A stretch of 64,000 nt of DNA from NCBI GenBank assembly GCA_965263185.1, contig OZ253588.1, positions 1,025,454 to 1,089,453 of the forward strand, given 5' to 3'. The stretch is from Dehalococcoidia bacterium. GTDB lineage: Bacteria > Chloroflexota > Dehalococcoidia > Lucifugimonadales > UBA2985. The notes under the pieces are model-generated. The model was not told the origin of the DNA. It searched no databases and saw only the letters and a program-made list of their open reading frames with translations. Below are positions 10,883-47,810 of this stretch, piece by piece (the first letter of the stretch is position 1; every line of letters starts with the position of its first letter). Position numbers and translations under genes: made by a program.

Positions 10883-11031
10883 TAACCTGCAGGCAGATAT
10901 ACGACAGGGGCGGAGTGAATTTGAGACATAGTCTACAATCCGTATGGCTGCTTGTCAACAGGCTGACGGAGCGACTTCCCAACTGTCGTTGCCATGAAAA
11001 CAGACGCTTTACGGGGTTGTCGACCCTTTTC

Positions 11032-11288
11032 CCGCTCATGTGGTTCGACAGGCGCGCCCACGAGTGGGGGAAGGAACTCGGCTGGCCATGAGTGGGGGCA
11101 ACCAACCACCGTCATTCCCGCGGATCCAGAGGGGAGAGGCGGCGGTGGGGCCGCGCGGGTGTTACAGGAGACGCCGCGCAATGCAATAAGGAGCGGTAGG
11201 CCCCTCGGGGTGGTTACTTGGGAGCGCGGCCTCAGGTATTAAGGGTATACCATTCCTGCGGAAGCAGGAATCCAGGGCTGGGGCGGCG
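11032..11288. repeat. REP-like intergenic repeat cluster
   Basis: ccgctcatgtggttcgacaggcgcgcccacgagtggggga (11032-11071), a degenerate gtcattcccgcg unit (about 11109), and cattcctgcggaagcaggaatccagggctggggcgg (11251-11286), which forms an 8-bp hairpin. Confidence 0.7.
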
Positions 11289-22080: not shown

Positions 22081-22606
22081 GCTGCTTGGCGTCCTGCATG
22101 ATTTTCTCTTGCAGCTTCAGGATGCCGTCGATCAGGGCCTCCGGCCTGGGCGGGCATCCCGGAACGTAAACGTCCACGGGTATTATGTGGTCAACGCCCA
22201 TCACCACCGAGTAGGAGCGGTAGTAGGGCCCGCCGTTGGTCGCGCAGCTTCCCATAGCTATCACCCACTTGGGCTCCGGCATCTGCTCGTAGAGGATTTT
22301 TATAGGCTCGGCCATCTTCTTCACCACGGTCCCGGCCACAATCATCACGTCCGACTGCCGGGGGGACGGCCAGGTGACTATGCCAAACCTGTCCAGGTCG
22401 TGGTGGGCCATGTAGGTGCTCATCATCTCTATGGCGCAACAGGCCAGCCCAAAGGTCATGGGCCACAGGGACGACTTTCGCGCCATTGCTATAAGCTGCT
22501 CCGACCGGGCGGTGACGACCCCCGGAGCGGCCCTGTTCAGTATACTACGCGGCTCCTGGTTCCCGTCGCCCGTGGTCACTTCCATTGTAGGACCCCCTTC
22601 TTCCAA
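22064..22606 (-). CDS. nuoB: NADH-quinone oxidoreductase subunit B (N2 cluster)
   Basis: [33 protein letters not shown]. Confidence 0.95.
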
Positions 22607-22968
22607 CTGTATATGATGCCAAAGAAGAGGATGCCTATGAACAGTAGCATCTCATAGAACACCGCGTCTATGCTGGTGAGGAAGACAAGGGCCCACGGGA
22701 AGAGAAACACGGCCTCAACGTCAAATATGAGGAACAGGATGGCGAAGATGTAGTACCTCATGTGCAACTGCGACCAAGAGTAGGGGGCGGGAGGGATGCC
22801 ACACTCGTACGACATGTCCTTGATGGCCGTTCGCTTCTTGGGGGAAAGCACGAAGGAGGCGGCGAACATGATCGCCATACCCACAAACCCCACAATGCCT
22901 GCTATCACCACCGCGGTGTAGTTGAGAGTCAACCCTTCAGGCGCCATCTGCAACCCCCAAGGCAACAA
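22576..22968 (-). CDS. nuoA: NADH-quinone oxidoreductase subunit A
   Basis: ND3-type: [18 protein letters not shown]. Alternative start at M8 (22947). Confidence 0.9.
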
Positions 22969-23105
22969 CCCATTGTGGAGCCGTCACCAATAGAATCGAC
23001 AACCGCACTCAGAATATACTACCCATCGGTGGCGGTGTCAATGAAGCTGCGTTGCCGATAGTCTCTACGGGCTCTGGTTATGCCAATGGCGGTTGGCGTA
23101 CCACT

Positions 23106-23146
23106 CCCCTCCCGCTCGTGGCGAGCATGTCGAACCATATGAGCGG
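23106..23146. repeat. REP-like unit, inverted copy of 2372-2413
   Basis: cccctcccgctcgtggcgagcatgtcgaaccatatgagcgg matches the reverse complement of 2372-2413, with 2 substitutions and 1 indel. Confidence 0.75.
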
Positions 23147-23183
23147 TAAGGGGGATTGGCTATGCTACAATGAGCGATAACTC

Positions 23184-23396
23184 TTGAGCAGGATGAAGAA
23201 TATGCAGGAACAACCAAGCCGCCAGACCTATCTTGAACGCGCCATTGCCGACGGCCGTGCCGCCGCGGTCCAGGAAGCTGTAGAGGCAGCTAAATACGGC
23301 TGCCCGGTCTCTAAGGTGCTTAAGGGCAATGCTACCCTGAGCGTCAGTCACCCTGGCGTAGGACCCTTCCCGGAGCCCGGCAAGTGTGTGTCATGA
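23184..23396 (+). pseudogene. C-terminal remnant of an OsmC/Ohr-family peroxiredoxin
   Basis: AVEAAKYGCPVSKVLKGNATLSV matches the C-terminal resolving-Cys block of OsmC-like proteins (A...CPVS.aL.g...i). The N-terminal two-thirds of such a protein are missing. Confidence 0.5.
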
Positions 23397-23629: not shown

Positions 23630-23664
23630 AAAAGGCCCCAGGCACAGCATGCCTGGGGCCTTTT
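23630..23664. terminator. bidirectional Rho-independent terminator
   Basis: aaaa-GGCCCCAGGCA-cagca-TGCCTGGGGCC-tttt: a perfect 11-bp GC-rich stem flanked by A4/T4, 40 nt beyond the stop of the DGQHR gene. Confidence 0.8.
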
Positions 23665-23704: not shown

Positions 23705-24889
23705 TTATCTGCCTATCGCCTTGAGTATCGTCTCATCGCTCTGGGTCAGTTCCAACCCGGCTAGCTTCTTGAGGTAGGCCCTTAGCTGTATCCTAACCCC
23801 ACTTCTGGGAAGAACCTGATTACCAGAAGTGATAATGCCCTGCCACATAGGAGCATCCCGCCGCCAGTCGTAGGTCTCAGGATGGGTTAAGGCCTTTTTG
23901 ACAACCTGTTGCCAGCCATGTCTCTCTTTCTCCATAGCGGTGGCTATGAATTCTCCGATGCCCGAAACAACTCCAGAGTTCCAGTGCAAATAGCGGCTTC
24001 GTACAGGTGGCACTGACAGCGTGCCGTCAGCTGCCTGCTTCCATTCAGGGAAACATTCTGCCAGGGTGTCCCAGACCTGTAGCAAAAGCTGAACATACTC
24101 GTCCCTTAGACTAGGAGTATCAGTCCGGGAGGTTAGGTTTTCTTGGACCAATCCCGCTGAGTGGGCAGCTGAAATAATGGGGCTACTGGCTTGGTACACT
24201 GCTGCCAAAGTCAGTATGGCTTGCGAACCTGCCGGTACGGCTGAGTTCTCTAGGTCCACGCGGTCCCTTAGCAACTGGGAGCATTCTACGAGGGCTTGGA
24301 CAACCTTGTTTATGGCGTCTCTGTGATTGAAGAGTATGTCTAAGCTTTTCGTGGTCTTTTTGGCAGTTCTGTTGAGATCTGAAAATAGTTGTTGACCATG
24401 ACTAACGCTGGTGTATGGGAATAGTACTATCGTAATGCGTTCGTCAGCCAATTCAGGCGTTTCTTCGACCACCTTTCTTATCGCACCAAAGCGATGTTGA
24501 CCATCTACTATGATTAGGGGGTCTCTCTGATCTAGGGTTAACATCCCAATAAAAGATCCTTCTCCCTCTGGGCTGGCTGGCAACCACTCTATTGGTTTAT
24601 CGATACCATCTCTTCCATAAGTGCAGGTCAATGCGCCAAATCTATAGTCATCCGGGTTATTGCGAATGTACTGAGCGATCTCGGCAAAGCGGCCAGAAGA
24701 GGGAATCCTGTTTTCTCTCTCTTTCGGGGGTAGGTTTCTATCTGTGACCGTCAGATACCTAACCGCCACTGAAAAAGGCAAAGTGATAACGTAGTAGGTG
24801 GTTCCGCCCATTACTCCTTTTAGAGCAGGAGCGGTCATCTTCATTCCAGGGTCTGTCATTTGGCCAAGGGCTTCTTGTAGGGTTGTCAT
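23705..24889 (-). CDS. DGQHR-domain protein (DndB-like, ParB-fold)
   Basis: IIVDGQHRFGAI (the DGQHR signature) followed by QQLFSDLNRTAKKTT (the Q.F.DLN block of DndB-type proteins). 394 aa. AT-richer islet. Confidence 0.8.
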   Translation of the reverse strand: MTTLQEALGQMTDPGMKMTAPALKGVMGGTTYYVITLPFSVAVRYLTVTDRNLPPKERENRIPSSGRFAEIAQYIRNNPDDYRFGALTCTYGRDGIDKPIEWLPASPEGEGSFIGMLTLDQRDPLIIVDGQHRFGAIRKVVEETPELADERITIVLFPYTSVSHGQQLFSDLNRTAKKTTKSLDILFNHRDAINKVVQALVECSQLLRDRVDLENSAVPAGSQAILTLAAVYQASSPIISAAHSAGLVQENLTSRTDTPSLRDEYVQLLLQVWDTLAECFPEWKQAADGTLSVPPVRSRYLHWNSGVVSGIGEFIATAMEKERHGWQQVVKKALTHPETYDWRRDAPMWQGIITSGNQVLPRSGVRIQLRAYLKKLAGLELTQSDETILKAIGR

Positions 24890-24969
24890 TTTGTTCCTCC
24901 TAGTTTTCTATAATCTGAAACGTAAAGCGCACATCGCGCGGTTCAATCTCTCTTATATGAATTTATAAA

Positions 24970-25239
24970 TCATGCCACCTCCTTCAGCCGAGCGGCCACT
25001 ACCTGCAAGGCTCTCTGTAAATTCAAGGTTGAAATCTTAGCAGCAAGTCCACTTAGTGCCTCGGTCAACGTAGGTTCATGCGATTGCTGTTCTATAAGCA
25101 GCGGTTGTAGATTCCCGGCACCTATAGTGGTGTATGTGCCCTTGGGTCTGCTCGTCACTTGAATAATGGGTCTCCATCCACCAAGATCTGGATCACCAAC
25201 TCGGTCAATATAACTCACGTTGTAAGCACTGTCGCTCAT
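24970..25239 (-). CDS. hypothetical 89-aa protein upstream of the DGQHR gene
   Basis: ATG at 25239 is preceded by AGGAG 5 nt upstream. The ORF-track start at 25290 would overlap the promoter palindrome. No family recognised. Confidence 0.5.
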   Translation of the reverse strand: MSDSAYNVSYIDRVGDPDLGGWRPIIQVTSRPKGTYTTIGAGNLQPLLIEQQSHEPTLTEALSGLAAKISTLNLQRALQVVAARLKEVA

Positions 25240-25269
25240 GTACTCCTGCCTTCCTATATTAACTTTTGT

Positions 25270-25313
25270 GTATCGATACTCTATATACAACGTGAAGTAT
25301 ATACTATCGATAC
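25270..25313. promoter_or_regulatory. large palindromic candidate operator
   Basis: GTATCGATACTCTATATAC-aacgtgaa-GTATATACTATCGATAC. The arms are reverse complements apart from one indel and one mismatch. Each contains TATCGATA and a TATA(T/A)AC -10-like hexamer. It lies 31-74 nt upstream of the 89-aa ORF. Confidence 0.5.
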
Positions 25314-25569
25314 AACCATGTCAATAGGTTACGGAGATGATCTGCGGAACTTGGCAAACCGATAGAAGGCAGAAAATACCTATCCTTGGTTGCCAGAGCC
25401 GAAGTGCTGTACCAATGCAGTTTGCCTTTCCTCGAGATGCATCGCTATTGGCTGGACATTGGTATTCCTGACGTGTAGGGTCTAAAGTGCCAAGGGGTTG
25501 GTAATCCCCTCTAATGAGGTAATGTGTAACGCTGGAGTCCCTCAACCATTATCACAATAGGAGAATCCC

Positions 25570-26283
25570 GTGAGCCTTTCAGATGTGAAAGCCCTTACCT
25601 TTGACGTGTTCGGCACGGTGGTTGACTGGCGCAGTAGCCTCATACGTGAGGGCGAGCAGCTTGGGCGTTCCAAGGGCATCGATGTGGACTGGTCGGATTT
25701 CGCCGACAGGTGGCGAGGCGGCTACGGCCCGGCAATGGCTCGCGTGAGAAGCGGGGAACTGCCCTGGACGAACATAGACGCGCTGCATCGCAAGATCCTG
25801 GATGGACTGCTGGAAGAGTTCGGTGTTGCTGGTCTGAGCGAGGAGGAGAAGGACCACTGGAACCGGGTGTGGCACAGGCTAGCGCCCTGGCCGGACTCCG
25901 TGGCCGGGCTGGCGCGGTTGCGCAAGCGCTTCATTGTAGCCACGCTTTCCAACGGTAACGTGGCCCTGCTAACCAACATGGCGAAGCGCTCCGGCCTGCC
26001 GTGGGATTGCATCCTCTCGGCTGAGCTTATGCGGCGCTACAAGCCCGACCCAGAGGCCTATCTGGGCGCCGTGGACCTGCTCGGCCTTCGTCCGGACGAA
26101 GTGATGATGGTAGCGGCCCACAAGGGCGACTTGCGGTCGGCGCAGGCGGTGGGCCTCAAGGCTGCCTTTGTCGCCAGGCCCCATGAGTTCGGCCCGGACC
26201 ACGCCGTGGACACCGCGCCTGAAGCGGATTTCGACGTCAACGCCACGGACATCGAGGACCTGGCGAGCAAGTTGGGCTGCTAG
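25570..26283 (+). CDS. HAD-superfamily hydrolase, haloacid dehalogenase type II-like
   Basis: Motif I FDVFGTVVDW, S/T motif ATLSNGN, motif K (YKPDP), motif IV (VAAHKGDL). GTG start. Confidence 0.75.
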   Translation: MSLSDVKALTFDVFGTVVDWRSSLIREGEQLGRSKGIDVDWSDFADRWRGGYGPAMARVRSGELPWTNIDALHRKILDGLLEEFGVAGLSEEEKDHWNRVWHRLAPWPDSVAGLARLRKRFIVATLSNGNVALLTNMAKRSGLPWDCILSAELMRRYKPDPEAYLGAVDLLGLRPDEVMMVAAHKGDLRSAQAVGLKAAFVARPHEFGPDHAVDTAPEADFDVNATDIEDLASKLGC

Positions 26284-29606: not shown

Positions 29607-30104
29607 TTACCGCCGCGCTCTCATTAGCTCCGGGCAAAGGAAATCTACCTCAATGCCGTGTTGTCGCAACTGAGCGTGGTAAGTCCACCAGTCGGTATCT
29701 GAGGCGTTCAACACCTTTGGCTGAGTCCCGCTTGACAGTGCCACGGCTACAAACTTGCGGTCGCTTCGGTCGAATGAACTGAGGGCAGGGTCGTCCGGGA
29801 ACTCCTCGAAGTCACGGTCTGCGTGATGATTCAAAGGGATTTTTCGGCAGTGCGACGGGTTTGCCTGGTTATCGTGGAGCCACTTGAAGAAAGAGTCACC
29901 AAGCCCAGGCTGTCCAGAGAAGCTGAGCCTTCCTCGGTATTCCTCAAGGATCAGGTTTCCGTCGTCCAAAAGGATCCGACATTCGTCACGGATGTGGCGC
30001 AAACGGCCTATGCACTTGAGTTTGCAATCTGGGCCAGCCTGTTCGGCCCTGCCATTTGCAACGACGGCAACATTGGTGTCCATGACTACCTCCGCCTTCC
30101 CCAT
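29607..30104 (-). CDS. PIN-like domain protein
   Basis: ATG at 30104 lies 2 nt after the ATPase stop (30107-30109). VVMDTNVAVVANG (first acidic residue), ILEEY, FDRSDRKFVAVA and NASDTDWW supply the four acidic positions expected of a PIN-type Mg-nuclease fold. Confidence 0.6.
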   Translation of the reverse strand: MGKAEVVMDTNVAVVANGRAEQAGPDCKLKCIGRLRHIRDECRILLDDGNLILEEYRGRLSFSGQPGLGDSFFKWLHDNQANPSHCRKIPLNHHADRDFEEFPDDPALSSFDRSDRKFVAVALSSGTQPKVLNASDTDWWTYHAQLRQHGIEVDFLCPELMRARR

Positions 30105-30106
30105 GC

Positions 30107-31507
30107 TCACGTAGAATCTCCCTGCCTTTTCAGCGCAGCTTCGCTCATGGCGGCAATCTCGCCGAACTGGTCGCCAAAGAAGTCTTTGGGCCAATTGGAG
30201 ATGTTCCCGTATTGGTCGACCTCAAGCTGGCTGACGCTTGAGCCTCCACTGTCATCTGCCGAGCAGAAATACAGGCCGACATCGTCCTTCTGTATCTCCT
30301 CTTCAGCGATACGACGCTGGAGCCTGCGAAGCAGATGCTCGCTGTGGCTCTCGAACAATACCTGTACATTATGATTCTTCCAGGTATCGATGAAGACATC
30401 GGCCAGGCCGGCCTGAGCAGAGGGATGCAGGTGAATATCGGGCTGCTCCAGAATCACAGTGGAGTGTTGCGGCACGTAGAAGCACAGTGCTAGCACGGGA
30501 ACAATCTGGGATACCCCAAAGCCGACGTCTGTGAGGAGGACTTCGGCTGAATGGGGAGACTTGCGCACCTTGACCTCGAACACCCGCTTGCCTTCAGCAA
30601 GCGCCTCGACTCGAAAGTCGTGAACCAGTCCAAGACGCTTGAGCCAAGCGGCTGCGTATTCGTCTATGGCAAGTTTGCGGGGGTTAGCGGCCCACTGCTT
30701 TAACTGACCTCTTTCTCGTGATGAAAGCAACGCGTCCACCAAAAAACCACCGTCCGTTCCCACATCGCTGGGTTGTACACGCGACCGGGTATAAGTGCGA
30801 AGTGGGGAGATACGGAGGGGGCCGAGGTAGTACAAATCTCGCAAGAGCGATTGCATTTCATGCTCGAGATTACGAAAGAAGAAGTTGTGACTCGAGTACC
30901 CCGAATTCGCCAAGTTTGGAAAGCTGTAAAACTTGGTCGAAGGCGGGAAATTGGTCGAAGGCGGGAAATTGGAGGTCCTAAAAATGTCCCAGTCATTACG
31001 AAATCTCAACTCGTTTGGGAGCGGCGGGGTCAAATGGTAGTCGGATTGGCCAAGATTGCGCCGCATCCCAATCTGCTGATCAGCTATGAGATAGGCCATT
31101 CTTTCCAGTATCAACGATTTCCCAGATCCTATGTTTCCTTCCCGTGACTCAACCTCGAATCCAATGTCGCTGCCTTCGAATATTATTTCCCTTTTAGAGT
31201 AGTCATCTGGTATTGTGAAAAAGGTCTTGGATTTCCAGGCGAGCGAAATCTTTAGATTTCGCGTAGTGTCGTGACCGTACACAACGCTCCCGAAGTCACC
31301 CAGGTCGACGGGTGTTTTTTCATCGCCGAAGTGGAAGACGCTCCCAAGGTCCGGCGAGTCGTCCGTCTGCTTCATCATCAGCAATCCTTGGTAAAGGCTA
31401 GTCTTGCCGGAGCTATTGGGACCAAAGAAGCCGGTGATGGGCTTTAGCGCAATGTCACCGGTGTCCATCCAGGATTTGAAGTTTTCGAGCCGCAACCGTG
31501 TCAACAT
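30107..31507 (-). CDS. ABC/SMC-type AAA ATPase (AAA_21-like, DUF3696-like C-terminus)
   Basis: LRLENFKSW...FFGPNSSGKTS (Walker A), signature-like DVGFGVSQ, Walker B VILEQPDIHLHP, H-loop FESHSEHLLRRLQRRI. The C-terminal block LEVDQYGNISNWPKDFF is, as I recall it, the DUF3696 region. SD GAGGAGG and a TATAAT (31532-31537) lie upstream. Confidence 0.75.
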   Translation of the reverse strand: MLTRLRLENFKSWMDTGDIALKPITGFFGPNSSGKTSLYQGLLMMKQTDDSPDLGSVFHFGDEKTPVDLGDFGSVVYGHDTTRNLKISLAWKSKTFFTIPDDYSKREIIFEGSDIGFEVESREGNIGSGKSLILERMAYLIADQQIGMRRNLGQSDYHLTPPLPNELRFRNDWDIFRTSNFPPSTNFPPSTKFYSFPNLANSGYSSHNFFFRNLEHEMQSLLRDLYYLGPLRISPLRTYTRSRVQPSDVGTDGGFLVDALLSSRERGQLKQWAANPRKLAIDEYAAAWLKRLGLVHDFRVEALAEGKRVFEVKVRKSPHSAEVLLTDVGFGVSQIVPVLALCFYVPQHSTVILEQPDIHLHPSAQAGLADVFIDTWKNHNVQVLFESHSEHLLRRLQRRIAEEEIQKDDVGLYFCSADDSGGSSVSQLEVDQYGNISNWPKDFFGDQFGEIAAMSEAALKRQGDST

Positions 31508-40880: not shown

Positions 40881-43409
40881 CTAATCCTCATAACCCAGCT
40901 CCTTTGCCCGTTGAAAGTCTTCGGCTGCTCCTTCTGCATCGCCCATCTTCTCTCTGGTCACGCCTCGAACCTGATATGCTATGGCACTTTTCGGTTCACT
41001 CTCAACCGAAGAGTTGAAATCGGCCAATGCCAAGGCAAATTCCCCCCTCGCCGCATGAGCGTAACCACGGAACCGGTAGACGAGCGAATTGTCGGGCGCA
41101 AGCCGAATTGTAATGTCGTAGTCGGCAATAGCCCTGTCGAAATCGAGCTTCTGGCGATACGCCATTCCTCTGCCAAAATAGGAGGGTATGTGTTCCGGAT
41201 CCAGCTTAAGAGCTTCGTTGTAATCGGCAATTGCCAAATCGTATTCGCCGTTGAATCGAAGGCAATCTCCTCTACATCGACGTGCGTCTACGTGGCTTGG
41301 TTCTAGTCGTAAAGCCTCGTCAAAGTCCGCGATGGCTAGTTCCAGCTCATCCCGTTCGCCATAAGCCATCCCGCGATGGTGGTAAGCCATGGCGTTGTTG
41401 GCACCAAGAAGAATCGCCCTTGTTGTATCGGAAACCACCCTATCAAAGTTGTTCATGTAACCATGGACAACCCCGCGCAATTGGTATGCAGCGGAATTGC
41501 CCGGGGTAAGCTTAATTGCTTCGTCCAGGTCTGAAATTGCTCGTACATTGTCTTCCTTTTCGAAGAAGGCCAATGCCCTGTACATGTATGCCGCGGCATT
41601 GTTGGGATTGCGCCTCAAGGAGGCACTGAGAGCAGCCATGTCTAGCTTGTCGCCCTTCTTCATGTCTAATGAGGGCAACTCCGCAATTGCCGCATTCACC
41701 AACTCTGATAGCTGTTCCAACTCTTCAGCGAATCCCATATGGCGCGCCATCTTGCTGTAGAGGTTCGACTTTGACCTGTCACCAGCCAGCAATCCGGTGA
41801 CGGCTGTGGCAACTACCACTGGTGGGGCGTCTGGATTCAACCTCAGGGCAGACTCGAAGGTTTCCAGAGATTCTTGGAACCTTCCCAATTGACGTAAGGC
41901 CACCGCCATTGCTTGGTAGTAGTATGCATCAAGGGAACCGCGTTCCGGGGCAACGCCTTGCAGATGCTCAACGGCTTCCCGTTCCCGGCCGGCCATGAGC
42001 AATATCCATCCGATTTCAGTCCAAGGAAGAAGCCAGTTTGGGTCCAACTTTGCGGCGAGCCAGCACTCCTCTAGACCTTCTTCGACCAAGGCCGCATCGC
42101 CTCTCTTGGCGCCTATGCCCCCCTTGACCGATCCCAAGGTGAAATGGTTTGCAGGGTCCAACAGGTCCAGTTCGGCCGCCTTGGTAACCTCGGCTAGAGC
42201 CTCGGGCATTTTCCCTTGTATTTGTAGCTCCATAGATCGCTCGTAGTGGGCGTAGGCTTCAGGTTTGCTTACATCCCAGCCCTTGAGAAGTCCACCTTCG
42301 GTTTCTTGGATCAGGGCATCAACTTCTCCCCGATGAACCTGATAGTTGACGGCTATCACCCTCCTTATCCAGTCCGAGCCCACCGCGACTAGGTCCTCTT
42401 TCCACTCACTATCCGACTCCCTCTCGGCCAATTCAGACAAGACCGGCTCTGAATACAGGGAGCCTGCACCATGAGCTAGTATGTCGGCGAAAGCAGCGTG
42501 GTGGGATTCCGTATCTAAGTGGACTTTTAAGCTGTCGTACACAAGAGTAGCGTAATTGCGCAAATGCTGAACTATCTCTGTGACGACTTCGGTTCCTATG
42601 TAGCCTGCCAGGGCAACGGCGATATCGCTGGCCCAATAGAGCCGTCTCAGTTCGCGGAGTACACGTGTGCGTTCGTGAGAGTCACCCTCCTTGGCTAATG
42701 CCTTGGCTATGTTCCTCAGGTTCTTACTCGATGGCCGCGAGCCCCGGTACACCCACGCTTCCACAGTGTTTTTGTCCACTACCATCTTACAGGAGAAATC
42801 CCAAAGAGAGGGGATTCCCGCTTCGGAGCGCATACTATCGAGATATTTGCCCCTGCGGTCAATTTCGACCCAGTCCAGAAAATTGAGAGCGATTGGTTCG
42901 GAACCGCTGAGGCGCATCTGAGCCGCGACTCTCAGCGCCAGGTCGACAGCAGCAAGCCTCGCATAGATCCTCCAAACGTTGGGTAAGTGGCTTGGGAACA
43001 CGCGCGGCATCCTGGGCCGAAGCAGAGATCTCAACCGGTCCCACTTCACCGCATGGTGATCGAGTATGGTGGTCAGCGCTTGTACAGTGGATGAAGCGCC
43101 ATCTCCATCGCTTGTACTTGTGCCCACCCCTTGTTCGACTAGGGTTTCCGCTATAGCCTTGATAATCTCAGTACGGCTGGACTCCTTCACTCTGTCTTCC
43201 AAATACCCTGAGAAATAGCGGCTGGCTGTCTTTGATTGGAGCTTTGGATGTTCTATACCCAAAGTCTTTACCAACTGCCCCAATATCTGGCCGCTGGTCG
43301 GCAGCTGCGGGGCAACTTCTCTTTCCAATACTTCGTCCGTACCTTCGCTGGTTTTGCTTTCCGACATTTCACTCCCTACGTGGTTCATTCTACCAGTCAT
43401 AGGAACCAC
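40881..43409 (-). CDS. HTH (XRE-like) + TPR repeat protein, coupled to pVip
   Basis: The C-terminal ~400 aa contain about 10 TPR units (e.g. AYMYRALAFFEKEDNVRAISDLDEAIKLTP, AMAYHHRGMAYGERDELELAIADFDEALRLEP, SYFGRGMAYRQKLDFDRAIADYDITIRLAP). The N-terminal half has an XRE-like stretch, VDKNTVEAWVYRGSRPSSKNLRNIAKALA. No P-loop. Candidate starts: 43409 (GTG), 43400, 43388. Confidence 0.75.
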   Translation of the reverse strand: MVPMTGRMNHVGSEMSESKTSEGTDEVLEREVAPQLPTSGQILGQLVKTLGIEHPKLQSKTASRYFSGYLEDRVKESSRTEIIKAIAETLVEQGVGTSTSDGDGASSTVQALTTILDHHAVKWDRLRSLLRPRMPRVFPSHLPNVWRIYARLAAVDLALRVAAQMRLSGSEPIALNFLDWVEIDRRGKYLDSMRSEAGIPSLWDFSCKMVVDKNTVEAWVYRGSRPSSKNLRNIAKALAKEGDSHERTRVLRELRRLYWASDIAVALAGYIGTEVVTEIVQHLRNYATLVYDSLKVHLDTESHHAAFADILAHGAGSLYSEPVLSELAERESDSEWKEDLVAVGSDWIRRVIAVNYQVHRGEVDALIQETEGGLLKGWDVSKPEAYAHYERSMELQIQGKMPEALAEVTKAAELDLLDPANHFTLGSVKGGIGAKRGDAALVEEGLEECWLAAKLDPNWLLPWTEIGWILLMAGREREAVEHLQGVAPERGSLDAYYYQAMAVALRQLGRFQESLETFESALRLNPDAPPVVVATAVTGLLAGDRSKSNLYSKMARHMGFAEELEQLSELVNAAIAELPSLDMKKGDKLDMAALSASLRRNPNNAAAYMYRALAFFEKEDNVRAISDLDEAIKLTPGNSAAYQLRGVVHGYMNNFDRVVSDTTRAILLGANNAMAYHHRGMAYGERDELELAIADFDEALRLEPSHVDARRCRGDCLRFNGEYDLAIADYNEALKLDPEHIPSYFGRGMAYRQKLDFDRAIADYDITIRLAPDNSLVYRFRGYAHAARGEFALALADFNSSVESEPKSAIAYQVRGVTREKMGDAEGAAEDFQRAKELGYED

Positions 43410-44259
43410 CTCTCGACAGGAATTTCTCAGGAGCTATCGAGATGTCACGGAGCGCCTCCTCTACTCCAACCTCCAGGATAGGTCGGCTGTAGATGTGAGT
43501 TCCGGAAACGTTGTCGAAGAACCTCCCAGCGGGGTCTACCATGACGTAGCTTCCCGTCATCAGGTCGTTGCTCTCCGGCACCACTACGATTCCAGTCATC
43601 TCGACTCGCCTGCACTGTTGGACGTACCGCTGAAATTCACCATCTGAAACTATATGCTCTCCAATTCCCGCGTCGTTCTGCCCCTTGACAGGGAGCACCT
43701 GGAAGAGCTTCCATCTCTCTGGGCGAGCCTTCACTATGAAATCGGTGAGGTCTTCCCCCAAGTTGCTTTGCGTCACCACGGTGTTGACCTTTATGCGAAC
43801 ACCGGATTGCTTGAGTATTTCGACTACACACAGGTAATCTTCTTTACTCATGGGGCCGTGTCTAGTAGTCCTGCCAATACCCACGAGTGTGTCCCTGTCC
43901 ACGGAATCAATGCTCAACGCAATCCAGGCGAGGCTTCCTTTGACGCTCTCCAGCCATTCCCCTGTAGTCCGGCTCCCATTGGTCACCACCGATGTGGTGA
44001 GTCCTAACTCCTTCGCCCGCCGGATCAGGTCAGGCAGCCAGGGACACAGGGTCGGCTCGCCACCGGCGAAGTTAATCTTTTGGAAGCCGGCCCCTGAAAG
44101 AGACTCTACAACTAGGATGCAATCCTCACGTCCGAGATGTCCCTTGGGCAGAAACTGCGGCTCAATATCCTGGAAGGTAGCGAAGCAGAACTTACATCTC
44201 ATATTGCAGGCCTTCCACAGGTGGTAGTTGACGGACGGAATCTCGTTGACTATGCTCAT
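43390..44259 (-). CDS. prokaryotic viperin (radical-SAM ddhNTP synthase homologue)
   Basis: SVNYHLWKACNMRCKFCF (CxxxCxxC), KINFAGGEP, RWKLFQVLPVKGQN, VPESNDLMTGSYVMVD, ILEVGVEEAL, FLSRGGSYDW. These are co-linear with the viperin/RSAD2 blocks as I recall them. ATG at 44259 follows AGGAGAGAA. The ORF is open to 44295. Confidence 0.85.
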   Translation of the reverse strand: MSIVNEIPSVNYHLWKACNMRCKFCFATFQDIEPQFLPKGHLGREDCILVVESLSGAGFQKINFAGGEPTLCPWLPDLIRRAKELGLTTSVVTNGSRTTGEWLESVKGSLAWIALSIDSVDRDTLVGIGRTTRHGPMSKEDYLCVVEILKQSGVRIKVNTVVTQSNLGEDLTDFIVKARPERWKLFQVLPVKGQNDAGIGEHIVSDGEFQRYVQQCRRVEMTGIVVVPESNDLMTGSYVMVDPAGRFFDNVSGTHIYSRPILEVGVEEALRDISIAPEKFLSRGGSYDW

Positions 44260-44462
44260 TTCTCTCCTCGGATATCTGTTGCTTTTGCACCGCATATCCC
44301 TATGGTATGGAGCCTATCCCCCGCTCACTACCCTACTTTGGTGGACAATTTGCATTTCGAACCCCCTATTTCTGTGATGAGGGGACGAGTTAATCGGGCC
44401 TCGCTACCGACTCACAGAGCGATCACGCGGGGATGTAGTCACGCTCGATTATGGCGTAGAAT

Positions 44463-47400
44463 ATGGCTATGCCAGTAACCACAACAAAGCTGACCACGGC
44501 AGTCGAGCAGTACTTCGCCGACCTCCGGCTCATACGGGCGTCCGGCGGCGCTACCGGTGAGCGGTCGTACTACCCGGCGCTGACCAACCTGCTTAACGCC
44601 GTAGGCAGCACTCTCAGGCCCCAGGTGTTCTGCGTAGGCGAGCTTGCCGAGCAGGGCGCGGGCCACCCCGACTTCGGCCTCTACGCGAGACGGCAGGTGC
44701 AGCGGGGAACTCCGCGCCCCGGCCAAGTCCCCGAACGCGGAGTCGTGGAGGTCAAGCCCGCCGGTGACGACGCCTGGTTGACGGCGGACAGCGACCAGGT
44801 GAGCCGCTACTGGGGTCGGTACAGGCTCGTGCTGGTCACCAACACCCGCGACTTCGTGCTGGTGGGCGAGGACGCGCAGGGCAACCCCGTTAAGCTGGAG
44901 ACCTTCCGTCTTGCCGACTCGGAGCAGGCGTTTCACTCCCGGCTGGAGACGCCCCGGTCCTTTGCCCGCGCCATGGGCGCGGGCCTGGGCGAGTACCTTT
45001 GCCGTGCGCTGTCCCACAGCGCGTCGATAGTCGAACCCAAGGACCTGGCATGGCTCATGGCGTCCTACGCGCGGGACGGCCTGGCGCGGGTGGAGGCTGC
45101 GGGCGACGCCCCATCCCTCCATGCCGTCCGCTCCGCCCTTGAGGAGGCGCTGGGCGTGCGCTTCGAGGGTGATAAGGGCGCGGCCTTCTTCCGCTCAACC
45201 CTGGTGCAGACCCTCTTCTACGGCGTCTTCTCCGCGTGGGTGCTCTGGGCCCGCCAGACGACGCCGCCCGCAGGCCCGTTCAACTGGCACGACGCCGTAT
45301 GGCACCTGAGAGCGCCCGTCCTCCGAGCCCTCTTCCAGCAGCTGTCCTCGCCCTCACAGCTACAGCCACTGGGACTGGTCGAGCTGCTGGACTGGACTGC
45401 GGCGGCCCTGGACCGTGTCGACCGCGGTGCCTTCTTCGACCGCTTCGACGCAGGCGAGGCCGTGCCGTACTTCTACGAGCCGTTCCTGGAGGCCTTCGAC
45501 CCCGAGCTTCGCAAGCAGCTTGGCGTCTGGTACACGCCCGCCGAGGTGGTGCGCTACATGGTCGCTCGCGTCGACATGGCGCTGAAGGAGGACCTGGGCA
45601 TCGCCGACGGCCTGGCGGCCGACAACGTCTACGTCCTTGACCCCTGCTGCGGCACCGGGACGTACCTTGCCGAGGTTCTGCGACGCATCGCCGCAAATCT
45701 CCAGGGCAAGGGCCTGGGCGCTCTCACCGGAGCGCAGGTGAAGCGGGCGGCCACCCAAAGGGTGTTCGGGTTCGAGATCATGCCTGCGCCCTTCGTCGTC
45801 TCCCATCTACAGGTTGGACTGACCATGCAGGCGCTGGACGCTCCCCTGTCCGATGACGAGACGGAGCGCGCCGGGGTGTACCTCACCAACGCCCTCACCG
45901 GCTGGGAGCCCAGCGTGCAGAAGCCGCTGCCCTTCCCGGAGCTGGAGGAGGAGCGCGACCGCGCCGATAGGGTGAAGCAGGATACGCCGGTCCTGGTCAT
46001 CCTGGGCAATCCGCCCTACAACGGCTATGCGGGCATGGCTGTCGAAGAAGAGCGGGAGCTCTCCACGGCCTATCGGACCACCAAGCAGGTGCGGCGTCCG
46101 GAGGGCCAGGGGCTGAACGACCTGTACGTGCGATTCTTCCGCATGGCAGAGCGTCGCATTGCCGAGAAGACGGGCCGGGGCGTGGTCTGCTTCATCTCCA
46201 ACTACTCCTGGCTGGACGGCCTCTCCTTCACGGGCATGAGGGAGCGCTACCTGGAGGCCTTTGACGTTATCCGTATAGACAACCTCAACGGCGACAAGTA
46301 CAAGACGGGCAAGACGACTCCCGGTGGCGCGCCGGACCCAAGCATCTTCTCCATGCCGGGCGATCCGGTGGGCATCCAGGTGGGTACAGCGATTACGACC
46401 CTGGTGCGCAAGGCTGACCACCAGCCCGCCAAAGAGGTCGGCTTCCGGCATCTGTGGGGACAGACAAAGCTCTCCGACCTGACGGCGACCGCCGAAGTGG
46501 GACCGGATGAGCTTTACGACAGCGTTGAGCCGAGCTTGCCTTTGGGGTTGCCGTTCGCTCCCGTCACTGTCAGCGCTCGATGGGCGGATTGGCCCGCGCT
46601 GCCAGACCTGTTCCAGATGTACTTCCCCGGGGTGCAGACGAGCAGAGACACGTTCCTATCGGACGTTGACATTGACCGGCTAGAGCGTCGTATAGCGGAC
46701 TACTTCAACCCTAACGTTAGCCATGAAGAGATTGCTCGGCGCTATCCTTCAGCGATGAACTCTACGGCAAACTATAAGGCTATTCCAGTTCGAGATGCAT
46801 TGCTTAACCGGGGCAACTCCGAAGACACAGGTGTCTTGCGCTTCGACTTTCGGCCATTTGACAAAAGATGGCTGTATTGGGATGGGCAACATGGCTTACT
46901 CAATCGTCCACGCCCTGAATACAAACCTCATGTATTCAAGGGGAACATAGCATTGGTTTCTCAACAGAAGCCTCGTCGAGAATGGTCTCCGCCCCAAGTG
47001 ATTGCTGCGTTGGGTTGCTACGACCTGATGGACCGTAATGCTTCATGCTTCCCTCTATGGCTCCACGAAGAGGGCATGGCACTTGACGGCGGCGGAGAGC
47101 AGCGCCGCCCCAACCTGTCGGACGCGGCCCAACGCTACCTTGACCGCCTAAGCCTGGGAGTGGAGGACCTGTTCCACCACGTCCTCGCCGTGCTGCACGA
47201 CCCATCCTACAGGGAGGCCAACGCCGGCGCCCTCAGGATGGAGTGGCCCCGCATCCCGCTGCCGGGCTGGCCGGACGGCGATACTTCGGGAGCGGCTGAA
47301 GAGCTGGCGGCATCGGCGGCGCGGGGACTGGAGCTTGCCGCGCTGCTTGACTCGGAGACGCCCGTTGCTGGCGTCACGACCGGCGCGCTGCGGTCGGAGA

Positions 47401-47810
47401 TGGCCGCGATCGCCGTGCCCTCAACCACGGACGGCGGCAACATGGCCGGTGACGACTTCTCGCTGACGGCTGGCTGGGGACACTTCGGGCAGGGCGAGGC
47501 TGTCATGCCGGGCCAGGGCAGAGCCGTCGAGCGCCCGTACACCGCGGAGGAGCGCGCCGCGCTGGGCACATCGGCAGACGCGCTTGGCAGCGCCACTTTC
47601 GACATCCACCTCAACGACCGCGCCTACTGGCGCAACGTCCCGTCGGCGGTCTGGAGCTACAAGCTCGGCGGATACCAGGTTCTCAAGAAGTGGCTCTCCT
47701 ACCGCGAGCGCGGCGTCCTGAACAGACCGCTGCGACCGGAGGAGGCGCAGCACTTCACGGACACCGCGAGGAGGATTGCGGGGATACTGCGGCTGGTGGG
47801 GGAGGGGTGA
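44463..47810 (+). CDS. single-chain PD-(D/E)xK + N6-adenine DNA methyltransferase + type-ISP-like C-terminal TRD (type IIG/IIL-like, no helicase)
   Basis: N-terminus: GHPDFGLY...GVVEVKP (D...ExK). Motif I VLDPCCGTGTYL. Motif IV ILGNPPYNGY. FISNYSWLDGLSFTGMRE block. C-terminus VWSYKLGGYQVLKKWLSYRE as in type ISP specificity domains. Confidence 0.75.
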   Translation: MAMPVTTTKLTTAVEQYFADLRLIRASGGATGERSYYPALTNLLNAVGSTLRPQVFCVGELAEQGAGHPDFGLYARRQVQRGTPRPGQVPERGVVEVKPAGDDAWLTADSDQVSRYWGRYRLVLVTNTRDFVLVGEDAQGNPVKLETFRLADSEQAFHSRLETPRSFARAMGAGLGEYLCRALSHSASIVEPKDLAWLMASYARDGLARVEAAGDAPSLHAVRSALEEALGVRFEGDKGAAFFRSTLVQTLFYGVFSAWVLWARQTTPPAGPFNWHDAVWHLRAPVLRALFQQLSSPSQLQPLGLVELLDWTAAALDRVDRGAFFDRFDAGEAVPYFYEPFLEAFDPELRKQLGVWYTPAEVVRYMVARVDMALKEDLGIADGLAADNVYVLDPCCGTGTYLAEVLRRIAANLQGKGLGALTGAQVKRAATQRVFGFEIMPAPFVVSHLQVGLTMQALDAPLSDDETERAGVYLTNALTGWEPSVQKPLPFPELEEERDRADRVKQDTPVLVILGNPPYNGYAGMAVEEERELSTAYRTTKQVRRPEGQGLNDLYVRFFRMAERRIAEKTGRGVVCFISNYSWLDGLSFTGMRERYLEAFDVIRIDNLNGDKYKTGKTTPGGAPDPSIFSMPGDPVGIQVGTAITTLVRKADHQPAKEVGFRHLWGQTKLSDLTATAEVGPDELYDSVEPSLPLGLPFAPVTVSARWADWPALPDLFQMYFPGVQTSRDTFLSDVDIDRLERRIADYFNPNVSHEEIARRYPSAMNSTANYKAIPVRDALLNRGNSEDTGVLRFDFRPFDKRWLYWDGQHGLLNRPRPEYKPHVFKGNIALVSQQKPRREWSPPQVIAALGCYDLMDRNASCFPLWLHEEGMALDGGGEQRRPNLSDAAQRYLDRLSLGVEDLFHHVLAVLHDPSYREANAGALRMEWPRIPLPGWPDGDTSGAAEELAASAARGLELAALLDSETPVAGVTTGALRSEMAAIAVPSTTDGGNMAGDDFSLTAGWGHFGQGEAVMPGQGRAVERPYTAEERAALGTSADALGSATFDIHLNDRAYWRNVPSAVWSYKLGGYQVLKKWLSYRERGVLNRPLRPEEAQHFTDTARRIAGILRLVGEG

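Follow-up and report, generated by a model that had tools for sequence, protein, structure and literature searches.

A DndB-family gene and a small upstream gene share an islet

We analyzed a 64,000-nt stretch of DNA from a Dehalococcoidia bacterium (hereafter, the window; contig OZ253588.1, positions 1,025,454 to 1,089,453), in which a gene for a 394-residue protein of the DndB family is preceded by a small gene for an 89-residue protein. The translation of the larger gene contains IIVDGQHRFGAI and QQLFSDLNR, and the protein matched DndB-family profiles. These results bear out a preliminary description of the same DNA, which had recognized a DGQHR/DndB-like protein of this length with an 89-residue open reading frame (ORF) 80 nt upstream; the spacer between the small gene and the start of the DndB-like gene is exactly 80 nt. 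A mechanical ORF list gives the small ORF as 106 residues, starting from an upstream TTG, and we preferred the 89-residue form because the homologues and the ribosome-binding site fit it.

The GC content of the islet that holds the pair was 0.45–0.53, compared with at least 0.60 in the flanks, and the GC content at third codon positions (GC3) was 0.51 and 0.45 for the two genes of the pair versus 0.74–0.85 for the neighboring genes. The AT-richer islet that had been claimed was thus confirmed. Its flanks, nuoA of the nuo operon on one side and a HAD gene on the other, were also correctly named, but a repetitive extragenic palindrome (REP)-like repeat and a truncated OsmC gene, which had gone unmentioned, separate nuoA from the pair. 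A hairpin with a perfect 15-bp stem and flanking A and T runs lies 41 nt past the stop codon of the DndB-like gene and corresponds to the bidirectional terminator proposed earlier; a consensus terminator scan missed it, its T run being just 4 bases long. In the window, the DndB-like gene is not followed by any large ORF. The positions of all features are collected in Table 1.

Table 1. Positions, strands and bases of the features discussed. Positions refer to the window unless a homologous locus (designated L) is named.
Feature	Position	Strand	Basis or remark
DndB-family gene (DGQHR, ParB/Srx-like), 394 residues	23705–24889	-	Profile matches, alignment, AlphaFold2 model
Small partner gene, 89 residues; start ATG at 25239, stop at 24970	24970–25239	-	Family search, synteny, ratio of nonsynonymous to synonymous substitution rates (dN/dS), structure model
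Shine-Dalgarno sequence AGGAG of the small gene	25243–25247	-	Sequence; counterpart in every homologous locus
Sigma-70-type promoter: -35 TTGACA (25324–25319), 17-nt spacer, -10 TATACT (25301–25296)	25296–25324	-	11/12 consensus matches
Putative operator: outer arms TGTATCGATAGT (25303–25314) and AGTATCGATACA (25269–25280), inner octamers GTATATAC and GTATATAG	25269–25314	.	Inverted-repeat search, shuffles
Terminator-like hairpin, bidirectional: 15-bp stem, 5-nt loop, flanking A run and T run	23630–23664	.	Inverted-repeat search
Short GC hairpin, then TTTACGTTTC, in the 80-nt spacer; possible attenuator	24927–24940	-	Terminator scan
Inserted islet, about 2.2 kb, from OsmC stop codon to HAD start codon	23362–25567	.	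Empty-site comparison, low GC and GC3
OsmC/Ohr-type 3' remnant, pseudogene: 5' truncated, 2-nt deletion near the stop; marks one insertion edge	23184–23361	+	Intact OsmC in L001 and L070
REP-like interspersed repeat, about 40 nt (CTCCCCTCCCGCTCGTGGCGAGCATGTCGAACC...)	23105–23147; also about 2371–2414 and 11029–11068		Sequence
nuoA	22576–22968		Flanking gene
HAD gene	25570–26283		Flanking gene
Third cassette gene of one subclade	L005 9367–9717; L010 9309–9653; L064 7294–7638; L066 7351–7719	- (all)	Cassette comparison
ORF of 82 residues in the L001 insertion	L001 9353–9601	+	Absent from the window
Upstream ORF of about 100 residues and its promoter	L068 5400–6000		P0089 subclade
Second solitary DndB-like type	L023 9839–11116; L028 9695–11116		28–30% identical to the window protein
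HEC-03 candidate defence pair	29607–31507	-	PADLOC
Prokaryotic viperin gene	within 40881–44295	-	PADLOC
Type IIG / Type ISP restriction-methyltransferase gene	44463–47810	+	PADLOC

Assignment of the 394-residue protein to a clade of the DndB family

The protein scored 232.1 bits against the Pfam DndB family (PF14072; E 1.2e-68; cutoff 29.1), 216 bits against the PADLOC DndB model and 155.4 bits against the NCBIfam DGQHR domain (TIGR03187; cutoff 58.85). The DndB-type (ParB-fold) basis that had been assumed for the module is confirmed at the level of family membership, with PF14072 and TIGR03187 both above their cutoffs. As the criterion for DndB proper we took the NCBIfam equivalog TIGR03233, with a cutoff of 328 bits. 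The window protein reached 203.7 bits and two other members of its clade, P0035 and P0086, reached 189 and 193.5 bits, all below this cutoff, and the control, DndB of a dndBCDEA operon (L025), scored 485.8 bits. The score against DGQHR_dnd_1 was negligible. DpdB, the DGQHR ATPase of the 7-deazaguanine dpd clusters, has the DGQHR ParB-like domain in common with the window protein, but the latter is far under the DpdB cutoff (NF041060, 12.8 bits versus 300; PADLOC DpdB, 11.2 bits), and neither dpdA nor another dpd gene lies nearby.

We found 169 homologues with 47–90% identity to the window protein, mainly in metagenome-assembled genomes of Dehalococcoidia and other Chloroflexota. The next tier in a scan of GTDB genomes was 26–30% identical and includes at least two loci of canonical DndB (L022 and L025), both with DndC and DndD directly downstream and L025 also with DndE and DndA. 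An alignment (A2) of 35 sequences that are 47–90% identical to the window protein had 66 invariant columns, and DGQHR, QQLFSDLNR and R297-x4-H302 were all invariant. The last of these motifs lies in the C-terminal helical domain, just before helix 305–334. With DndB/DptB (TIGR03233, PF14072), the repressor of dndBCDE, the window protein shares DGQHR, Q-x-F-x-D-L-N, R-x4-H and the two-domain layout, but it is 26–30% identical to the DndBs of such operons, about 45 residues longer and below the equivalog cutoff. Judged by these scores and identities, the 394-residue protein represents a separate clade of the DndB family and is not DndB proper.

The AlphaFold2 model of the protein had a predicted local distance difference test score (pLDDT) of 85.8. 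Its N-terminal domain is predicted to be ParB/Srx-like, and PHROGs gave a ParB-like match (E 4e-4); the structural matches are weak. Foldseek against BFVD returned viral DndB-family, GmrSD N-terminal, AIPR and ParB-nuclease proteins with E values of 1e-7 to 1e-3 and TM-scores of 0.2–0.43. No DndB relative of solved structure turned up when the PDB was searched by sequence, either with the protein itself or with its profile.

A second solitary DndB-like type occurs in Dehalococcoidia (L023 and L028). It has no adjoining dndC or dndD and no partner with the GGWRP motif described below, and its R-x4-H has Y in place of H.

The small gene belongs to a partner family

A profile search for the small protein recovered 199 proteins of 69–112 residues, none with a Pfam domain or an informative name; the family is rare, with about 200 clusters at 90% identity and 41 at 50%. 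An exhaustive HMMER search of 1.84 billion representatives gave only 41 small-protein clusters, all of them short and standalone, with no domain fusions. The upstream ORFs of four homologous loci share with the window ORF the sequence G(D/N)P(E/D)LGGWRP and a C-terminal helix, and a G-x-P-x-LGGWR motif is invariant in the family. In the window protein this motif sits in a predicted disordered region. The structure model was poor (pLDDT 62), below 50 in the N-terminal half and confident in the C-terminal helix, residues 58–88, and we found no structural analogue of it in the PDB. An AGGAGG-type ribosome-binding site (GGAG or AGGAGG) lies at the same distance ahead of every homologous small ORF.

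The hidden Markov model of the small family matched the ORF directly upstream of the DndB-like gene in 13 of 13 distinct contexts with upstream DNA (the window, L001, L004, L005, L009, L010, L013, L015, L018, L019, L020, L064 and L066), and it matched at no canonical or more distant DndB locus examined. A survey of close DGQHR homologues for the 89-residue partner, as the preliminary description had suggested, thus found the partner upstream in all 13 of these contexts. The two families are alike in size (169 DndB-like versus 199 small-protein matches), and the contigs that carry them match in length. Pairwise identities of the two proteins correlated with r=0.80 over 78 locus pairs, which share sequences and are not independent, and the partner diverged faster, with a mean identity of 0.44 versus 0.58 for the DndB-like protein. 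These sequence comparisons indicate that the two genes co-evolve. Comparison of the window with L001 gave a dN/dS of 0.10 for the DndB-like gene and 0.35 for its small partner. Purifying selection acts on both, and the 89-residue ORF is a real gene. Lack of conservation of this ORF had been named in advance as a ground for abandoning the idea of a minimal two-gene module; the conserved family, its ribosome-binding sites and the dN/dS of 0.35 instead support a conserved, autonomous pair.

These data also bear on whether the pair has a function at all. It could be the remnant of a decaying dnd operon, or a spurious small ORF beside an orphan gene, and a Pfam DndB match without dndCDE neighbors would fit this, as would the local decay seen in the adjacent OsmC pseudogene. 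Purifying selection on both genes, a distinct clade with 66 invariant columns, a dedicated partner family, and conserved promoters and ribosome-binding sites nevertheless make a functionless remnant highly improbable.

Among the called neighbors within +/-6–8 kb in eight distinct contexts (L001, L004, L005, L009, L010, L064, L066 and L068, the last without a recognizable partner), no dnd, dpd or ssp Pfam family was found. The lack of dnd, dpt and dpd partners claimed earlier therefore holds for dnd, dpd and ssp genes, in the window and in these regions around the homologues. The neighbors were unrelated housekeeping genes, among them nadABC, groESL, ruvABC, folate genes and an Lhr helicase gene. 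Thus, unlike DndB/DptB, the window clade does not stand beside dndCDE in the surveyed loci, and it is preceded by a small partner that canonical DndB does not have. Full-text searches of the literature found no description of a solitary or standalone DndB-clade protein with a small partner; the DndB protein family is known, but the clade, the partner family and the behavior of the cassette appear to be undescribed.

Two variants of the cassette were seen at other loci. At L068, whose DndB-like protein is of the P0089 subclade and 49% identical to the window protein, the upstream ORF of about 100 residues has a TTGACC-17-TATACT promoter. This ORF has no GGWRP motif, but the helix at its end is similar (PIEAAVHLVGSALLQLE), and it could be a partner that has diverged strongly. 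One subclade has a third, convergent gene of 114–122 residues with the core ...LTDPFV(I/V)Y...YLPV..., which is absent from the window and had no family match in any library searched.

The promoter overlaps a putative operator

A -35 element, (C)TATTGACA, with a 17-nt spacer is shared by most homologous loci. In the window, the two outer arms of the putative operator are 12 nt each, with one mismatch and 22 nt between them, and the inner octamers lie over the -10 element and the predicted start of transcription. Both GTATCGATAC and GTATATAC are self-complementary. A near-perfect palindrome had been reported here. Both of its strings exist, at 25270–25288 and 25297–25313, but they form an imperfect dyad with one arm mismatch rather than a near-perfect palindrome. 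The chance expectation of the palindrome 19-mer was 0.01 per window, and the inverted repeat had p=0.023 against dinucleotide shuffles of the same 100 nt.

In several loci, short self-complementary boxes flank the -10 element at a distance of about 33–35 bp from each other; the box of the window is GTATCGATAC. Paired boxes in the same relative position as in the window were found at L013, L015, L019 and L066. The box is CCATATG(A/G) at L013 and L015, L018 has the same box (CCATATGG) in a different arrangement, the L020 box is CACGTGA, and in L009 a more compact inverted repeat, which overlaps the -10 element, takes the place of spaced boxes. Such variation by locus is expected if each pair has its own specificity. 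Family-wide statistical support for the operator was modest (Fisher p=0.018 over 13 loci). DndB of Salmonella enterica binds its own promoter at two palindromic boxes (PMC4507180), and the window resembles this system in its paired promoter boxes. By this analogy, autoregulation of the operon by the DndB-like protein at the putative operator is plausible, and we regard it as a reasonable inference.

The stem of the GC hairpin in the 80-nt spacer is kept in L001 with altered bases (GCGCG/TGCGC to GCGCC/GGCGC). Among the homologous loci compared it was conserved in the window and L001 only, and we rejected it as a family-wide attenuator.

The cassette is mobile as a unit

The strongest evidence for mobility is an empty site. 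In L070, a related 2.44-Mb contig whose HAD protein is 86% identical, 8 nt separate the stop codon of OsmC from the start codon of HAD, in the gene order QueA-OpuAC-RmuC-OsmC-HAD-(NYN)-ABC2-ABC-ADH-MFS. L001 has the same order, with a 2,387-bp insertion exactly at the OsmC/HAD junction. A junction alignment showed that the insertion ends of the window are homologous to those of L001, which points to one ancestral insertion. OsmC is truncated in the window and intact in L001 and L070, which shows that the islet came to adjoin the nuo operon through a rearrangement; the truncation is later than the insertion, and the truncated gene is joined to the REP-like repeat and nuoA. On one 171-nt contig from another metagenome, the upstream region of nuoA is joined directly to HAD, which is weak evidence. 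Between L010 and L064, nucleotide identity is 83% across the cassette and does not extend beyond it. Two divergent copies, each accompanied by a separate partner, occur on one complete 3.28-Mb Dehalococcoidia chromosome (OZ252215.1). We conclude that the cassette was horizontally acquired and is mobile as a unit, and this behavior as a two-gene cassette is a further difference from DndB/DptB.

No convincing terminal inverted repeats or target-site duplications were found at the insertion ends, and tRNA and Rfam scans for an integration target or an RNA element gave only tRNA-Val at 2104–2180, far from the islet. A phage origin of the cassette is unsupported, because viral contigs hold no close members. 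In several metagenomes, the depth of the REP-like repeat rises to thousands-fold, and contigs break at it. In L001, the insertion also contains, just downstream of the DndB-like gene, an 82-residue ORF whose N-terminus is coiled-coil and whose C-terminal Cys and His residues (HHVSC...PCKTCRA) resemble a zinc ribbon.

Mobility is relevant to an alternative reading of the pair, in which it is a dedicated regulator of distant genes, that is, a nucleotide-responsive repressor with a co-regulator or anti-repressor that controls a DNA-modification operon or another operon elsewhere. DndB has been shown experimentally to repress through two palindromic boxes, paired boxes are present here, all DndB-family motifs are kept in the 394-residue protein, and our search for dnd genes covered gene neighborhoods rather than whole genomes. 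However, the box GTATCGATACTNTATATAC occurs once only in the 64-kb window, and no dnd genes lie within 6–10 kb of the pair in 13 contexts. The cassette moves as a unit among unrelated sites, is present or absent among close relatives and can occur as two divergent copies with separate partners in one genome, and a regulator that travels without its target operon is hard to explain. We therefore consider a regulator of distant genes unlikely.

A proposed self-repressed pair with a partner-inhibited effector

The pair has the layout of type II toxin-antitoxin systems: a small gene upstream, a palindrome overlapping the promoter, and a patchy, mobile, multi-copy distribution. In type II toxin-antitoxin and Abi pairs such as HEPN-MNT and AbiU1/AIPR, there is likewise a small upstream gene, a promoter palindrome, a patchy horizontal distribution in multiple copies, and a faster-evolving, partly disordered partner. 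An AIPR protein is among the structural matches of the window protein, and DndB has been linked to AbiU1/AIPR (PMC3632139, PMC3506569). The window partner differs in having no MNT or other known antitoxin fold and no relatives in the libraries searched. Both ATP and GTP are ligands of a DndB-like protein in vitro (bioRxiv 10.1101/2025.10.10.680097). Taking the toxin-antitoxin-like architecture together with this nucleotide binding, we propose a self-repressed operon with a partner-inhibited effector. In this tentative proposal, to which we give a little less than an even chance, the pair is an autonomous, mobile two-gene operon that is independent of phosphorothioation and acts as a toxin-antitoxin-like or abortive-infection module whose effector is held by the partner.

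The module might work as follows. The strong sigma-70 promoter would drive the small gene and then the DndB-clade gene, and the DndB-like protein, by analogy with canonical DndB, would bind the two palindromic boxes across the -10 element and the transcription start and repress its own operon. The DGQHR (ParB/Srx) pocket would bind ATP or GTP, and the nucleotide may switch DNA binding or enzymatic activity. The partner, mostly disordered alone, would dock through its invariant G-D-P-(E/D)-L-G-G-W-R-P loop and C-terminal helix and keep the DndB-like protein inactive, as in type II toxin-antitoxin or abortive-infection modules. Once the partner is gone or has been displaced, for instance during phage infection, the ParB/Srx nucleoside triphosphatase (NTPase)-nuclease domain and the R-x4-H (HEPN-like) domain could attack nucleic acids or nucleotides; a published description of DndB gives it a ParB-like and a HEPN domain (PMC3632139). 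From the architecture of the pair alone we infer a defence or toxin-antitoxin function, and DNA binding, protein-protein interaction, nucleotide switching, toxicity and a role in defence are all putative. Somewhat less probable than this proposal, but not remote, is that the pair represents the first member of a new family of toxin-antitoxin or abortive-infection systems, in which a DndB-clade ParB/Srx nucleotide switch fused to an R-x4-H (HEPN-like) domain is plugged by the invariant GDP(E/D)LGGWRP loop of an intrinsically disordered partner.

A number of observations weigh against a toxin-antitoxin-like module. Canonical DndB is a dispensable repressor, and to our knowledge no toxicity, nuclease or ribonuclease (RNase) activity is known for any DndB. 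R-x4-H alone is no proof of an active HEPN RNase, because canonical DndB carries it too; a Pfam scan of the C-terminal domain alone matched the DndB model only and not HEPN, and no HEPN protein was among the structural matches (Foldseek, PDB). The top PDB matches by Foldseek, namely Srx (1yzs, 3cyi), PadC (6ryk), SspE (7drr) and BrxU (7p9m), were weak (E at least 0.17). The small protein matched nothing in Pfam, NCBIfam, PADLOC or PHROGs. Its disorder is N-terminal and it has no recognizable DNA-binding fold, which is the reverse of a classical type II antitoxin. L020 and L064 showed no inverted repeat above chance in the shuffle test, and L001, the closest relative, retains just one GTATCGATAG box. 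The neighbors of the homologous cassettes are mostly housekeeping genes, not defence islands, and the scan of viral contigs turned up two distant DndB-like loci only and no close family member. Read depth over the module equalled the DNA depth of the strain in the runs that contain the sequence (contig-stored, of unspecified type) and gave no evidence of transcription.

The structural matches also raise the question of whether the DndB-like protein acts on its own in type IV-like restriction or sensing, as enzymes such as GmrSD, SspE and BrxU do. It would then couple an NTP-dependent ParB-like sensor for modified or foreign DNA to an effector domain, and the small protein would be its specificity or activation subunit and not an inhibitor. 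These effectors of type IV restriction or phosphorothioate sensing (DUF262 ParB-like NTPase plus nuclease) share with the window protein a ParB/Srx-type N-terminal domain, DGQ(H/Q)R and a C-terminal putative effector. SspE and BrxU are among the top PDB matches, the viral GmrSD N-terminal and AIPR matches have the better E values given above, SspE has been termed the counterpart of DndB in Ssp systems (PMC10853773), and other defence systems lie 4–20 kb away in the window. Against this, the GmrSD_N score (PF03235) was 12.8 bits versus a cutoff of 33.2, the Pfam scan found no DUF1524 or HNH domain in the 394-residue protein, and the TM-scores are low. Moreover, GmrSD, SspE and BrxU use no small upstream partner, and the faster evolution and predicted disorder of the partner here suit an inhibitor better than a subunit. 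A restriction enzyme with a dedicated subunit is thus quite improbable.

Defence-related genes elsewhere in the window

The HEC-03 candidate defence pair consists of a 466-residue AAA_15/AAA_21/DUF3696 ATPase (PADLOC HEC-03B, 429 bits) and a 195-residue partner (HEC-03A, 140 bits). Farther on, a 301-residue radical S-adenosylmethionine protein is a prokaryotic viperin (PADLOC pVip, 293 bits; pVip-kinase model, 372 bits); its gene overlaps the start of a downstream gene for an 842-residue tetratricopeptide-repeat protein, and both have lower GC3 than the surrounding genome. The 1115-residue Type IIG / Type ISP restriction-methyltransferase has Type_ISP_C and N6_Mtase domains (PADLOC REase_MTase_IIG, 298 bits). 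Its gene adjoins transposase-like ORFs at about 49.9–55.2 kb, so that this part of the window has the appearance of an island of defence and mobile genes.

Implications for the DndB family

DndB is usually treated only as a dispensable repressor of dnd operons. Comparative-genomics studies have also speculated that it is an NTPase, a nuclease or a HEPN effector, for which there was no test case (PMC10853773, PMC3632139). The clade described here lives alone, moves alone and has its own partner, so that DndB-type activity can be studied in it without the phosphorothioation machinery. If the protein is merely a self-regulating repressor, the result is a modest refinement of annotation. If the pair is toxic or protective, it would add a new family to the catalogue of defence and toxin-antitoxin systems, in Dehalococcoidia and other Chloroflexota, whose defence is poorly explored, and it would give the orphan small-protein family its first function. 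A partner-inhibited effector of this kind would be the first function of the DndB family that is wholly uncoupled from DNA phosphorothioation, and would point to canonical DndB as a conflict effector that has been domesticated.

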